From contig DAIDDL010000002.1 in NCBI GenBank assembly GCA_027309085.1, positions 47,063 to 111,062 of the forward strand: 64,000 nucleotides of DNA, in the 5' to 3' direction. This document shows, piece by piece, positions 6,950 through 27,669 of this stretch (its first letter is position 1; the number at the start of each line of letters is the position of its first letter). A program made the position numbers and the translations under genes. A model generated the notes under the pieces. The model made no database searches. It had not been told where the DNA came from and was given only the letters and a program-made list of their open reading frames with translations. Source of the DNA: Sulfobacillus sp. (GTDB taxonomy: Bacteria; Bacillota; Sulfobacillia; Sulfobacillales; Sulfobacillaceae).

Positions 6950-7720
6950 TTAAAAATAGAACGACGTTAACCCTCCATCAATATTTAGCTCGGCTCCCGT
7001 CATCCACGCAGATTCCGTTGAAGCTAAATAGACCGCTAAGTGCCCAATATCTTCCGGAACGCCAAAGCGCCCCATAGGGATGCGAGCCAGCCGCAACGCC
7101 TTGGCAGCAGGATCTGTAAGAAGCCATTCCATTAGCAGCGGCGTTTCAATTGGCCCCGGGCAAATGGCATTGGCCCTGACACCTTTCGGACCAAACTGCG
7201 CAGCGAGTGACTTTGTCAAGGCAATTACTCCACCTTTGCTGGCCGTGTATGAATCTTGCGGCACTGTGCATCCCACTAGTGCGACAAACGAAGCAATGTT
7301 TATAACCGAACCGCCGCCAGCCGCGATCAACTCTGGGATTCCGTGTTTGCATACAATGAAGGTTCCCTTTAGATTCACAGCTTGCACCCGGTCCCATATC
7401 TCAACATCCGTGTCAATGACGGAGTGGTCCGCTTCAGGCATAATGCCAGCGTTGTTGTACAGGACGGTCAATTTGCCAAATTCTTGCACCGTAGATGCCA
7501 CCGCCGCTTTTACTGCGTCTTCCTGGGTGATGTCACAGACAATCGTCTTGATATGGCTTCCTTTCTCTTGCGCAAGATCCTTGGTTAAGCGTAGACCCTC
7601 TTCCAGCATATCCAATGCCGCCACATAGGCACCTTCTTGCGCAAACATCTTGGCGACGACTTGCCCCATTCCACTGCCTGCACCTGTAACTAACGCAACT
7701 TGTCCTTTTAATCGATCCAT
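6950..7720 (-). CDS. Short-chain dehydrogenase/reductase (SDR)
   Basis: TGAGSGMG cofactor motif, NNAG, YTASK catalytic motif, CPGPIETP. Confidence 0.93.
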   Translation of the reverse strand: MDRLKGQVALVTGAGSGMGQVVAKMFAQEGAYVAALDMLEEGLRLTKDLAQEKGSHIKTIVCDITQEDAVKAAVASTVQEFGKLTVLYNNAGIMPEADHSVIDTDVEIWDRVQAVNLKGTFIVCKHGIPELIAAGGGSVINIASFVALVGCTVPQDSYTASKGGVIALTKSLAAQFGPKGVRANAICPGPIETPLLMEWLLTDPAAKALRLARIPMGRFGVPEDIGHLAVYLASTESAWMTGAELNIDGGLTSFYF

Positions 7721-23152: not shown

Positions 23153-24454
23153 TCATGCGTTATAGTGTTCCGAAACGAGATTCCACAGACCTTTTGATTC
23201 CAGAATCCGGCGGGGCACTTGGAGACTCAGTTGGACCACGCCGGGAAGCCGCGAAATCTGCACTTCCCCACTGACGGTGCCCCGGTTCAAGATTTCATCC
23301 TCACTCATGTTCATAAACCGTGCGGCCCGCGTTACCGCATTGTTGGTGGCCGTGTTGAGATCCTTGCCCGTTCCGATGAATTGGACGGGCAGCATATCCA
23401 GTTCGGGCACCACTCCCAGGTCTTGGCTCAGTTCAGCGAACTGCTTGCGTTCTTCTGGAGAAAATGGCCGAACCATGCGGGGAAGATCTTCAGCATTGGG
23501 CAAGAGCAACGGGCCGTCAATGTCCAGTCCCTTGATCACTTCAACTCTCACTGCAATATCTGCCGTAATGTCGATGCTGTGCCCGGCAATTTCTCCGCGG
23601 CCCATGATGGAGTGTGCGTCGCCCATGTACACCCCGGCCCCGTCCACTTTTACGGGCGCAATCAAGACGGCGCCTGGGCGTACATCGCGGCAGTCCAGAT
23701 GGGCATCGGTCCGCGCCGCGTCTAATTCCTCTTCCGTCACCCTCCACTCATGGTGGGTTCCAATAAGGAAAGAGCCGAAATCTCCGGCATTATGGGAGTC
23801 CGGCAAGGTCCTGGAAGGGATCGTGCCAATATTCCCGATGCAGGGTTCGACTCGCACCGGCAGTCCTGCCAATGCGTGCGCGGCATAGACCAAAATAGAG
23901 TATTGCTGGCTGCTCTCAGGCAATTCTGCCATGGCCCGTGCATCATGCGCATAGTCTTCGGCACGGTCTTGGCCGACCGCCATGGATAAGTGGTGGTCTT
24001 TATCAAACGCCACCGTGTACCCTTGCCCAAAATGAAAGGGACTAGCCTCGCTGCCACAGTGGCGGCACCGGATACTGCCTTCCCCTATCCCCCGCAGTTC
24101 ACTCTGAGGCCAAAGCGTTCCACAGTGAGGACATTTTTTGGCTACAAACGGATCCTCGATGAAGGCAGAGGCATTGGTCTGCATCGTACCGGAACTGGAC
24201 GCCCGAGACACGACGTTGACGGTCTCGATATAAATGGCGACAGCATCACCAATTCTGGCCCCGTCAATATACACCGGCTGGGTCACTTCGTGGCCTCCAC
24301 GAAAGTCCGGGGTAATCATGGGTCCCCAACATCCGGGCGGCGTAATCGCGCGGATGCGGCCTCCGCTTTCTAGTCGGGCGAAAAATCCCGTTTCCGGTCC
24401 AATCAGCCCGTGAGTGAACTGGGTAACCAAAACATCCTTCTCCAGCTTAGCCAA
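23153..24454 (-). CDS. Acetamidase/formamidase family protein
   Basis: GGHEVTQPVYIDGA.IGDAVAI, HNAGDFG, LDCRDVRPGAVL..PVKVDGAGVYMGDAH..G.GEI motifs; TTG start with AAGGAGG. Confidence 0.85.
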   Translation of the reverse strand: MAKLEKDVLVTQFTHGLIGPETGFFARLESGGRIRAITPPGCWGPMITPDFRGGHEVTQPVYIDGARIGDAVAIYIETVNVVSRASSSGTMQTNASAFIEDPFVAKKCPHCGTLWPQSELRGIGEGSIRCRHCGSEASPFHFGQGYTVAFDKDHHLSMAVGQDRAEDYAHDARAMAELPESSQQYSILVYAAHALAGLPVRVEPCIGNIGTIPSRTLPDSHNAGDFGSFLIGTHHEWRVTEEELDAARTDAHLDCRDVRPGAVLIAPVKVDGAGVYMGDAHSIMGRGEIAGHSIDITADIAVRVEVIKGLDIDGPLLLPNAEDLPRMVRPFSPEERKQFAELSQDLGVVPELDMLPVQFIGTGKDLNTATNNAVTRAARFMNMSEDEILNRGTVSGEVQISRLPGVVQLSLQVPRRILESKGLWNLVSEHYNA

Positions 24455-24659
24455 TTTACTCGCCTCCTTGTCTATTGCACTGTCTCAGATGCGGAATGTT
24501 GCACATCGGTCTCCGGCTGATACTGCCTCTTTACGGAGAACGTGAACTTCCGTTGCGCTGACAAGCAACCCGCGCCACGGGCAGAAAAAATAGCGATTAA
24601 ATCATATCATACGCCGTCGCGGCTACTGGGATACCGCCATAATTCCCCATAAATGGTGG

Positions 24660-24985
24660 GCAACTATTTAGGTACCCCCATGCCTTTTGAGGAAGAATTT
24701 GGAGCAATTCTCTTTTTCGCTGTGCCAACGTAGCTTGATACAGTAGGGCCAGATCGATGATGAGGTGAACACGGTGCTCCCCCCTCCGGACCCCACGACA
24801 TTGGCGCTGACCACAGCGCCATCTTGGAGAACCTGGACCGTGAACGCTTTGATGCCTGCCTCGATGGCGTATTTGCCGTGATCCAGGCGCTGGGGGAGCA
24901 GAATCAGGCCCTCCGCGCCCAAGTGGCGACATTGCAGGAGACGGTCGATCGGTTCCGGCGGCAACTCGGCCAGAACAGCCGGATC
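24660..24985 (+). mobile_element. IS66-family (single-ORF, DUF6444-type) left-end remnant
   Basis: Terminus GCAACTATTTAGGTACCCCC resembles IS66 GTAACTATT ends. It is followed by a coiled-coil fragment ..AVIQALGEQNQALRAQVATLQETVDRFRRQLGQNSR that breaks off where the NSxNSSxPPS motif would continue. Confidence 0.55.
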
Positions 24986-25433
24986 CTGCAGCGTTCCAGA
25001 CGCGGTGGCGCCAGGGATTGCCGATGATTCTCCTGGCGCTCGTTCAATCTATTGCGCAGCTGTGGGCCAATCGCGTGCTGCAGCTCTCGGAGCGCGTGTT
25101 GCAGGTGTCTCTAGCCTTCCAATAGCGTCAGTTGCGGCGGCAAGTGGTCGAGGCGACGGCTCGACGGCAACACCAAGATGGGCTGTGGGAGGCGAGATCG
25201 CCAGCTGCCGACCTCTCCAGCGAGGCCCCGGTTTGTGGTCGTCCTGACAAATGCCACCTCAATAGGCTCCCCCACCGCCCCATACGGACGATTGCGCATG
25301 AGTAGAGCGCTCATCAAACAGATGCCATAGTCTTCTGAACGACCATGGTCCCTGATGAAGCGGGTTGCCTGGTTAGCCGACCGGTAAAATGCTTGAGAGT
25401 GTCAGCCGCCCAACGCATTACTGTGCAATTGAA

Positions 25434-25697
25434 CATAACGCCCGCGCATTCCCCTTCTTAGGCGATAGCCAAGAGGGGGTCAAGCGGGCCAGCCCGCAGG
25501 GCTAGACAGCCCTAAATTTTTGTTCTACTATAAGGGCATAGGGGCCGGAACGGTCCGAATCGACGCCTGGGGAGATCCAGCATAAGACGCACGCAGCCTA
25601 ACGGCTCGGCGCAGCGGTCGTAGAACCAGGAACTTCCGGGAGTGATCCCAGAAACCCCTGCCTCAACCCGTATGGGTTAGGCGGCGGGAGAGTTCAT
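25434..25697 (+). mobile_element. 264-bp non-autonomous IS200/IS605 (TnpB-type) mini-element (PATE/MITE)
   Basis: Left end: cleavage site TGAA (25430-25433), guide CATT (25447-25450), hairpin 25451-25478. Right end: guide GAAA (25651-25654), hairpin 25655-25689, cleavage site TCAT (25694-25697). Both pairs obey the IS608/ISDra2 guide-cleavage pairing rule, and excision restores the doc frame. Confidence 0.88.
25503..25531 (+). promoter_or_regulatory. Sigma-A-type promoter inside the mini-element, upstream of the omega-RNA scaffold
   Basis: TAGACA-N17-TACTAT. Confidence 0.65.
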
Positions 25698-25715
25698 GCC
25701 ATTCCACAATCACCG
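25535..25715 (+). ncRNA. Putative TnpB omega RNA (reRNA): scaffold to 25697 plus flank-derived guide
   Basis: Typical right-end motifs GGGGCCGGAACGGTCCGAA..ACGCCTGGGGAGA, GAACCAGGAA and the terminal hairpin GAAACCCCTGCCT..AGGCGGCGGGAGAGTTCAT. The guide would begin GCCATTCCACAATCACC. 5' and 3' ends are inferred. Confidence 0.65.
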
Positions 25716-25949
25716 GCAGGGACAAATGTTTCTCCGCCACCTCTACAATAAAATTATCGGCGTCTGTCGGGGCGTCCCACAAGGCCATGTCGGCGTCGAA
25801 ACATAGAGCTCATCGCCGCCCATAGTAGCCTGGGGACGTGCCACTGCGGACTCCATCCAGGCCTTCTAGGTTCAAGACGCCCTGCAAACCGCCGAATCGT
25901 TCAACCACCTGAAAGTGAACGAACAAGACTTCCTGAACGGTCAAGTACC

Positions 25950-26195
25950 TCATCGATCAGCTAACCGCCGCAACACGTCCTCGTATTCCGTCACAAAATT
26001 GTCCACCGCCTGAACGAAGTCCGGTGTGATGTCGGCGGTCACCTCATATAGCGGCTTAACGACGATTTCTCCTTGGTCATTTCGGAGAACCTGCACAAGT
26101 TGGTCTTCGAGCCGCATCTGGCGCACCCACTCGGAAGGAATCGAAACCGCGAAACTGTTGCCCACCTTGAAAACCTTCCGCACTTCCAGCGTCAT
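25950..26195 (-). CDS. AbrB/MazE/SpoVT-family antitoxin (partner of doc)
   Basis: RKVFKVGNSFAVSIP N-terminus, C-terminal EYEDVLRRLA; RBS AGGAGG; TATAAT at 26217-26222. Confidence 0.85.
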   Translation of the reverse strand: MTLEVRKVFKVGNSFAVSIPSEWVRQMRLEDQLVQVLRNDQGEIVVKPLYEVTADITPDFVQAVDNFVTEYEDVLRRLADR

Positions 26196-26985
26196 CGCGC
26201 CCCTCCTGTTATTACGATTATAACGCAGTGAATGCTGTATCAGCAGTTCACACCAGCAGTGAATACTGCGGGACTGGCAAGTGGGGGACGCAGGCATTGG
26301 TCTCCCATGCAGACACCAAATGAACCGGGCCGGCATCTACCGACTTTCACCTCTTAGTCATATCGCAAGAAATGGCGCGATGGGATCCCCACGGCGTGGT
26401 GCAAATTAAACAGGAGCTGCAGATTGGATGGCGCTGCAAATTCCTTGCGCCATGGACCCAGTAATAGGGATAAGTGGGCGGTTGCCGTGCAAGGGCAAGA
26501 GTGAGGCGAAAAATCACGTGTCCGCGTTTTATTGGTTTTTTGAGGCGGTGGGCGGCTATGTGCCCGAACCTCTGGTGGTCAAAATGCCGGGCTATGCGCC
26601 TCCCGACAGGGGAAAGTAGTGTCTGCACCATACCATTAATCGACGGGTCTTCTCTTTGTGGATTATTTTAACCCAAGGTTCCTAAAACCGGGGATCACAA
26701 ACGGCTCTATCCACATCAGCCCAAACGCTTTTATGAATATATCGGAGACCCGAAAATCCCTTCTGTCTGGCTATCCGCAATCAGCTCACCTTCAAATTGT
26801 TATCTGTTAGCACGGTCAAAGTTAGTGAGCGATACCATTCTTTTCTGGGTTACATCTGGTACCACGTTGAAACTTCACCACGCTAATCAGTGATCATTGG
26901 GGGCGATAGCCGCAACGGCGATCGAGCTTATGGGGTGCCATCCAACGGGTGGTGTCTGGACAGAATTGCATTTCTAGGCCTGGGA

Positions 26986-27031: not shown

Positions 27032-27265
27032 GTGGAGCGAGCGAAGATTTTCCAGTCCGGACGGAGTCAGGCGGTACGCCTACCCAAGCAATTCCGGTTT
27101 GGGGGCACGGAAGTGTTTGTGAAGCGTGTCGGCACCGCAGTCGTATTGTTGCCCACAGCGGATGCGTGGGATTCACTGGCTAGGGCGTTGGATTTATTCT
27201 CGGACGACTATATGTCTGAACGTCACCAGCCACCTGAGCAGCAACCGCGTGAGGACCTGCATTAA
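27032..27265 (+). CDS. vapB: VapB antitoxin (AbrB/VagC type)
   Basis: AKIFQSGRSQAVRLPKQFRF; stop overlaps the vapC start. Confidence 0.92.
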   Translation: MERAKIFQSGRSQAVRLPKQFRFGGTEVFVKRVGTAVVLLPTADAWDSLARALDLFSDDYMSERHQPPEQQPREDLH

Positions 27266-27669
27266 TGCGGTACATGTTGGATACCAACATCTGCATCTAT
27301 CTCATCAAAACCCGCTCAGACACCTTGCTGAACCGGATGCGCGGATTTCGCACGGCCGAGATCGGGGTCTCTGTGGTCACCGTGGCTGAGTTGCGGTATG
27401 GCGTGGCGAAGAGTCAACAGACGGCGCGAAATCAGGCGGCCCTTGAGGCGTTCTTGTTGCCTCTGGACATCGCGAATCTTTCTATGGACACCACGGTAGT
27501 CTATGGCGAGATACGTGCGGACTTGGAGAAACAAGGACGCCCCTTCGGGCCCCTCGACACGCTGATCGCGGCGCACGCCTTATCCTTGGATGTTCCGCTG
27601 ATCACCAATAACACACGAGAGTTTGCACGGGTCGAGGGATTGCGCGTGGAAGATTGGACATCAACATAA
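27265..27669 (+). CDS. vapC: VapC PIN-domain toxin
   Basis: YMLDTNICI, AELRYG, GPLDTLIAAHA, ITNNTREF. Confidence 0.95.
   Translation: MRYMLDTNICIYLIKTRSDTLLNRMRGFRTAEIGVSVVTVAELRYGVAKSQQTARNQAALEAFLLPLDIANLSMDTTVVYGEIRADLEKQGRPFGPLDTLIAAHALSLDVPLITNNTREFARVEGLRVEDWTST

Follow-up and report, generated by a model that had tools for sequence, protein, structure and literature searches.

Introduction

Palindrome-associated transposable elements (PATEs) of the IS200/IS605 group were first named in Haloquadratum walsbyi (PMC3119063), and it has already been stated that protein-less IS200/IS605 elements encode omega-RNAs for TnpB acting in trans (PMC10055086, PMC10691335). As summarized in the latter source, standalone omega-RNAs are mobilized and were reported to work in trans with compatible effectors (Altae-Tran et al., 2021, via PMC10691335). 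ISDra2 and IS608 combine peel-and-paste transposition by TnpA with a TnpB that is guided by an omega-RNA (PMC10097598, PMC10055086). The functional core of the ISDra2 omega-RNA consists of a 116-nt scaffold and a 16-nt guide; the 5′ extension can be dispensed with (PMC10097598).

Here we describe a protein-less IS200/IS605 element that lies in a doc toxin pseudogene of an uncultured member of the Bacillota, within a window of 64,000 nucleotides (the whole stretch of DNA that was analyzed). The element is a clear example of the kind already described as PATE and not a new kind. Like the PATEs, it carries no open reading frame of its own, shares its left and right hairpins with resident tnpA and tnpB elements, lies directly 3′ of a short, constant motif that is not duplicated on insertion, is present in many copies, and has retained an omega-RNA scaffold, presumably for use by a TnpB acting in trans. 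It differs from them in its host, in its sequence family, in its TTGAA target and in belonging to a protein-less lineage that forms a single clade over several genera. With the standalone omega-RNAs of OMEGA systems, as far as the source cited above presents them, it has in common the lack of an effector and a transposase and the presence of effector-containing loci in the same genome; their function in trans has been demonstrated experimentally, whereas for the element described here it is predicted.

In contrast to ISDra2 and IS608, the element has neither tnpA nor tnpB, but it obeys the same rule for pairing between DNA guides and cleavage sites. As in ISDra2, the omega-RNA region overlaps the 3′ end of tnpB, terminates with the transposon at its right end and has its guide in the flank, the target doubles as the TAM (TTGAT in ISDra2, presumably TTGAA here), and the resident TnpB has the RuvC D-E-D triad and a zinc finger. 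We consider it likely that the element is a PATE with an omega-RNA scaffold that is moved by TnpA, and that its RNA is loaded by TnpB in trans and used for homing.

The current picture of IS200/IS605 biology is unchanged by this element, and the additions are modest: support for one protein-less lineage that extends over several genera, and for conservation of a promoter-like site where the scaffold begins. In the PATE literature we found no description of such a site abutting the scaffold. The element is, at the same time, a clean and fully delimited natural guide-RNA-only transposon with an empty site, helper genes and diverged relatives. It could be used to establish which omega-RNA and TAM this TnpB clade minimally requires, to test trans-loading and homing, and to ask how elements without genes obtain their own transcription.

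Results

Extent, Copies, and Boundaries of the Element

The element is a discrete protein-less IS200/IS605 unit of 264 bp (C95:72496–72759 in the 4.49-Mb, 172-contig assembly; Table 1). A search of its own genome identified 14 full copies with an identity of 98–100%, and a 15th copy that is divided between two contig ends (the end of C33 and the start of C63). All 14 full copies are directly preceded by TGAA (as TTGAA in 13 copies and as CTGAA in one), all 14 have GAGAGTTCAT as their 3′ end, with a terminal TTCAT, and the DNA beyond the borders is unrelated between them. An earlier note on this DNA had derived the boundaries from the sequence of the window and had suggested that other copies should follow TGAA and end in TCAT. 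The recurring full copies place both borders at exactly the predicted nucleotides, and every one of them conforms to this expectation. The length of 264 bp given there is correct for the copy in the window but not for the family, the consensus of which measures 263 bp; the window copy has one additional G (GGGG at 25541–25544, compared to GGG in the consensus and all relatives), at the 5′ edge of helix P1.

Five copies match the 263-bp consensus exactly and the remainder deviate from it at one to five positions, which points to a very recent burst of the element in this genome. Insertion took place 3′ of a fixed tetra- or pentanucleotide, and neither a target-site duplication nor terminal inverted repeats are present, as is characteristic of PATEs. 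The coding content is limited to overlap with chance open reading frames of at most 41 amino acids, and the part that is homologous to the 3′ end of tnpB is a remnant of approximately 50 codons without a start. Neither tnpA nor tnpB is found inside the element, in agreement with the initial description.

Other, decayed derivatives are located in the same genome (G000:C11:72617–72757, C84:3086–3250, and C125:6969–7076). One decayed derivative measures 135 bp and combines the left end and a GGGCTAGACA block with the central hairpin and one half of the right end; two more are a degenerate fusion of the left end to the scaffold and a solo right end.

Table 1. Features of the element and its surroundings, with positions as numbered in the window.
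Feature	Position	Strand	Basis
(T)TGAA target site and presumed TAM	25429..25433	+	14 copies; empty site in G003; tnpB relatives flanked likewise
Complete protein-less element (PATE)	25434..25697	+	14 full copies; 264 bp here, consensus 263 bp
Left end, nested hairpin	25434..25489	+	Folding; identity to left ends of tnpB elements
Terminator-like hairpin AGGGCTAGACAGCCCT and T run	25498..25523	+	Scan; overlaps the −35; pairing not conserved in relatives
Candidate sigma-70-like promoter, TAGACA-N17-TACTAT	25503..25531	+	Consensus scan; conservation in relatives
TnpB omega-RNA scaffold	25538..25697	+	Homology to tnpB 3′ end and right end; covariation
DNA guide GAAA for right cleavage	25651..25654	+	Immediately 5′ of right-end hairpin; IS608 rule by analogy
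Right cleavage site TCAT, last 4 nt	25694..25697	+	14 copies and tnpB-carrying relatives end in TTCAT
Flank, would-be omega-RNA guide of 16–20 nt	25698..25717	+	By construction; with TTGAA specifies the empty doc site
doc (Fic/Doc toxin) pseudogene	25401..25953	−	Translations; element interrupts it 11 codons before the stop
phd-type (MazE/AbrB-fold) antitoxin gene, intact	25950..26195	−	Upstream of doc; Pfam PF04014, 36.4 bits

Transposon Ends and Cleavage-Site Pairing

The left end folds into an outer stem, in which GCCCGC (25440–25445) pairs with GCGGGC (25484–25489), and an inner stem (25451–25459 with 25471–25479), with the DNA guide CATT (25447–25450) read immediately 5′ of the latter. 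The right end forms a long, imperfect hairpin (25655–25688) that is preceded by GAAA and followed by AGAGT-TCAT. By analogy with the rule established for IS608 (g1-c2, g2-c1, g4-c4), the pairing of CATT with the left cleavage site TGAA and that of GAAA with the right cleavage site TCAT are both as required, and both guides occupy the positions proposed for them beforehand. The autonomous relative in G004 has CATG as its guide, which is a mismatch at g4; position 4 of the guide therefore does not appear to be strict.

The left end has 87–89% identity with its counterparts in the tnpB-only insertion sequence of the same genome, and 95–98% identity with the left ends in relatives. For the right end, identity to the tnpB and tnpA + tnpB elements of this genome and of relatives is 80–84%. 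Both subterminal hairpins have homologs at the ends of tnpA- or tnpB-carrying elements, as in described PATEs. In two protein-less relatives (L073, DAHXNH010000316.1; L060, G022:C415), the loop of the right-end hairpin is enlarged by an insertion of approximately 25 nt.

Helper Genes in the Genome

The earlier note had called for a search for an autonomous tnpB with the same ends and had made a cognate tnpA/tnpB a condition for its reading; a cognate tnpA and a tnpB with related ends are both present. The genome contains five genes for Y1 transposases. One of these encodes an intact TnpA of 151 amino acids (C84:135056–135508; Pfam Y1_Tnp, 130 bits), which retains HVHLLV and the C-terminal Tyr, and the gene adjoins a TTGAA-flanked left end of the element's family. 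This TnpA is 81% identical to the TnpA of the autonomous IS605 of G004, a closed genome with seven copies of a complete 2,033-bp IS605-type element that has divergent tnpA and tnpB genes and the same ends. A second TnpA of the family, on C119, carries a nonsense change (TGG to TGA). A cognate Y1 HUH transposase, intact by its sequence, is available in trans.

A tnpB-only element of 1,651 bp (C87:7319–8969) contains a full-length tnpB, follows TTTGAA and ends in GAGAGTTCAT, and it has both the TTGAA target and the TTCAT end in common with the protein-less element. It is the only contiguous tnpB copy in the assembly and has 79 masked bases, with an unreadable N-terminus; approximately 11 further right ends and nine left ends of the tnpB family are located at contig termini and represent collapsed copies. 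The encoded TnpB has OrfB_IS605 and zinc-ribbon domains and aligns with the structures of ISDra2 TnpB (8BF8, 8EXA, and 8H1J; E ~6e-12), with the D, E, and D residues of RuvC and the zinc finger in place.

At least four tnpB copies are interrupted at approximately codon 90 (between KFRQA and YQRFF) by a group II intron (L015, G000:C117:254–3408; L018, C108; L035, C119:1–2601; and C5:78–347). Rfam RF01999 and RF00029 both match this intron, which codes for a maturase-domain reverse transcriptase. Its presence at the same site in these copies suggests that it homes into tnpB itself. These interruptions and the masked bases of the contiguous copy weigh against the proposed working of the element with a resident TnpB.

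Homology and Fold of the Omega-RNA Scaffold

The claim that the element carries a TnpB omega-RNA scaffold is borne out by homology and by a fold with covariation support. Positions 109–264 of the element align at 80–83% identity with the terminal 156 nt of the resident tnpB elements, a segment through which the tnpB reading frame continues. The arrangement is that of an omega-RNA: it comprises the 3′ end of tnpB and the right end, stops at the transposon boundary and has its guide in the flank. In the tnpB-carrying relatives, a block that begins with TAGGGCCGGAACGGTCCGA is the most conserved part of the last 520 nt (identity of 0.97), and the homology of the protein-less element starts exactly at TAGGGCCGGAACGGTCCGA. 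Given that a 116-nt core suffices in ISDra2, approximately 156 nt leave room for a complete scaffold, and we infer that it is complete. It differs at 17–20% of its positions from the scaffolds of the resident tnpB elements, which counts against the use of its RNA by the resident TnpB.

The scaffold folds into helix P1 (25542–25547 with 25551–25556), a variable central hairpin (approximately 25586–25613), helix P4 (25634–25641 with 25646–25653) and the stem of the right-end hairpin (25655–25669 with 25674–25688), and a closing helix is predicted between GAAC (25630–25633) and GTTC (25692–25695). When 23 scaffolds, taken from this genome and from relatives, were aligned, the consensus fold had 29 pairs, of which 11 show compensatory changes. 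In total 94.7% of the cells are paired and 48 are double-change cells, the covariation score was not reached in any of 500 shuffles, and slid registers of the same alignment fall to 28–54% paired. The central hairpin is fixed in place and variable in sequence (GGGGCC/GGCCCC, GAAGCC/GGCTTC, TCCGTC/GACGGA, and GGAGAC/GTCTCC). When only the protein-less copies are considered, 91.2% of the cells are paired and the double-change cells number 22, with none of 500 shuffles reaching the observed score and with compensatory changes in P4. The secondary structure is conserved and has the support of covariation. As the right-end hairpin is also required as DNA by TnpA, its covariation bears on both functions at once, and it is the covariation in P4 and in the central hairpin that distinguishes a function as RNA from one as DNA.

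A permissive Rfam scan of 24500–26800 (E up to 10) returned no match to the element, and at the gathering threshold five related loci matched only parts of group II introns, with no match in the right ends of full tnpB relatives. Rfam appears to hold no model for omega-RNAs of this kind; the scaffold has no detectable sequence similarity to a curated RNA family, and the assignment as RNA is based on homology and covariation. The assignment of a pseudoknot of the ISDra2 type is ambiguous, as two invariant GAA(C/U) segments are each able to pair with GUUC at positions −6 to −3. One compensatory event (in L057) tentatively favors the GAAC of the predicted closing helix as the partner.

A Promoter-Like Site at the Edge of the Scaffold

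A promoter of the form TAGACA-N17-TACTAT had been noticed immediately before the scaffold, and a consensus scan recovered exactly this site as the sole promoter-like match in 25300–25850, where 0.3 matches are expected by chance. The predicted start of transcription (~25538) falls at the 5′ boundary of the scaffold, on its opening conserved ATAGGG. Among 15 divergent protein-less relatives the −35 is conserved at 88%, and the −10 follows the profile T A x x A T, with its first T in 11, the first A in 11, the second A in nine and the final T in 13 of the 15. The 17-nt spacing is fixed and the 5′ half of the spacer is variable (61%). The −10 in the window copy, TACTAT, matches the consensus at four of six positions, and the −10 or the −35 is missing in three to four of 15–16 related lineages; a lineage with a weak −10 (TAGTCT) nonetheless has at least five copies. 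On the strength of this conservation, we lean toward the view that TAGACA and TACTAT serve as a promoter.

The spacer (25509–25525) contains a further motif, TTTGTTC, which at 88% is its best-conserved block and does not correspond to any feature of sigma-70 promoters. The motif belongs to a small AAAC..GTTT palindrome, and the same palindrome is present upstream of tnpB, in the 5′ UTR of the tnpB-only element (CTAGACGAAGAACGTTTGTTCG; G000:C87, ~7455–7480). That the palindrome is common to the spacer and this 5′ UTR suggests that the protein-less element may have originated by a deletion extending from the tnpB leader to the scaffold. The palindrome also lends itself to a different explanation of the region, in which the spacer motifs represent a hairpin or an operator from the tnpB 5′ UTR, and the omega-RNA is produced by read-through from neighboring genes or from another start. 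The imperfect −10 and the lineages that lack one of the hexamers would be in line with this. Transcription of doc cannot supply the RNA, however, because the element is antisense to doc, and the profile of the −10, the conserved −35 and the invariant spacing are those of a promoter, with a predicted start that falls precisely on the scaffold edge; we therefore regard this explanation as doubtful.

A terminator scan reported AGGGCTAGACAGCCCT and the T run that follows it, in the region of the −35 (Table 1). An intrinsic terminator at this position would shield the element from transcription that enters from outside. The stem comprises only 6 bp, and most relatives lack the pairing even though TAGACA is kept, so that a role as terminator is very improbable. 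No compensatory changes were seen in this stem among the relatives.

The Protein-Less Relatives Form a Lineage

At least seven further genomes from the same Bacillota family contain protein-less relatives with 74–84% identity to the element, and an exact-word scan of reference genomes identified relatives in several metagenome-assembled genomes labeled "Bacillota bacterium." They share a common architecture that consists of the left end, GCCCGCAGGGCTAGACA, a spacer of approximately 17 nt, a TAnnAT hexamer, ATAGGGCCGG with the remaining scaffold, and the right end. The protein-less scaffolds have GAATCGAC in common, whereas all tnpB-linked scaffolds have GAAGTCAC. In a maximum-likelihood tree, 11 protein-less scaffolds are separated from 15 tnpB-linked scaffolds with a branch support of 93/95. 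Judging from these comparisons, the protein-less elements are a single old clade that spans several genera.

Within this clade the fold has been kept, including P4, which TnpA does not need, and this argues for selection on the RNA, beyond the DNA ends, in elements that have no tnpB in cis. Recombination with full-length elements may be an alternative source of the conserved fold. It could also be supposed that the element is only a miniature transposon mobilized by TnpA, and that the scaffold is a passive leftover of a tnpB deletion that no longer gives rise to a functional omega-RNA. TnpA requires just the hairpins and the cleavage sites, the 15 copies are too similar to inform on selection within this genome, and the lack of an Rfam match to the element is compatible with a leftover of this kind. 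Yet a segment of approximately 110 nt that separates the spacer from the right-end hairpin, and that transposition does not require, has been retained, the compensatory changes in P4 and the central hairpin extend across a protein-less clade of several genera, and the promoter-like site is found at a constant distance from the scaffold. On balance we consider a passive leftover unlikely, and prefer the reading in which the scaffold is used as an omega-RNA in trans.

A further proposal, which we put forward tentatively, is that the promoter-equipped cassette is not a transient result of deletion but represents an old, independent lineage, which would be a parasite of TnpA for its movement and of TnpB for its retention, and in which the fold would be under selection without tnpB in cis. 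If this is true, the use of guide RNAs by TnpB in trans would count as a natural strategy that is stable, with elements of this kind evolving promoters of their own.

The Empty Site, the Guide, and the doc Locus

The initial description had predicted that an orthologous site without the element would read TGAA followed directly by the 3′ flank. G003, a genome of the same genus, has a homologous phd-doc pair that encodes an intact Doc of 130 amino acids, and the empty site in its doc gene reads TTGAA followed directly by GCCATTCC, as predicted, with GAGATTGAA continuing uninterrupted into GCCATTCCACGATCG at the equivalent place. The target that is specified by the element's own guide (TTGAA and GCCATTCCACAATCACC), comprising TAM and guide sequence, is likewise uninterrupted in this homolog.

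In the window, the flanks joined across the element read GCAATTGAA followed by GCCATTCCAC, and the minus strand of this junction encodes the C-terminus of Doc, VIVEWLQLHSNALGG, up to its stop codon; removal of the element recreates the C-terminal end VEWLQLHSNALGG and the stop. The claim that excision restores doc holds insofar as the C-terminus is rejoined, but a working doc gene is not regained. Compared to the intact homolog in G003 (L068:1501–2100), the gene has two frameshifts and a deletion of approximately 100 nt that covers the Fic motif, and its match to the Pfam Fic model (17.4 bits) is below the cut-off of 24 bits. By this comparison, doc is dead independently of the insertion.

The empty site, together with the ends and the helper genes, fits a scheme based on the established mechanisms of IS608 and ISDra2. 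A Y1 HUH TnpA encoded elsewhere in the genome, by a gene of the type found on C84, would move the element as single-stranded DNA. It would recognize both subterminal hairpins and cut 3′ of TGAA at the left end and 3′ of TCAT at the right end, the cleavage sites being read by the internal tetranucleotides CATT and GAAA, and the element would be excised and inserted 3′ of TGAA. Beyond this movement, we infer transcription from the promoter-like site, loading by TnpB and homing. The sigma-70-like promoter would start transcription at the 5′ edge of the scaffold and into the flank, and the omega-RNA guide of each copy would be its own 3′ flank, that is, the sequence that adjoins TTGAA when the site is empty. 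This omega-RNA would be loaded in trans, by analogy with the known systems, by TnpB encoded in the resident tnpB elements; after excision by TnpA, TnpB would cut the restored TTGAA-plus-flank site, upon which recombination with the sister chromosome would reinstate the element.

For none of the 14 copies does the genome contain a second site with TGAA and the 16-nt guide at up to two mismatches, which fits a role in retention and not in retargeting; at the level of these matches, the element gives no sign of self-targeting or of regulatory retargeting. The orientation of the 14 copies relative to host genes is mixed, as assessed from open reading frames across the joined flanks, which are unreliable in this GC-rich genome.

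The surroundings of the element contain several other genes. An open reading frame at 24824–25027 was considered as a remnant of an IS66 transposase and was dropped, as Pfam gave no support. A gene of the acetamidase/formamidase family is located at 23153–24454. A second toxin-antitoxin pair, consisting of vapB (MazE/AbrB-fold) and vapC (PIN), is located 1.3 kb downstream (27032–27669), and the element therefore sits within a cluster of toxin-antitoxin modules.
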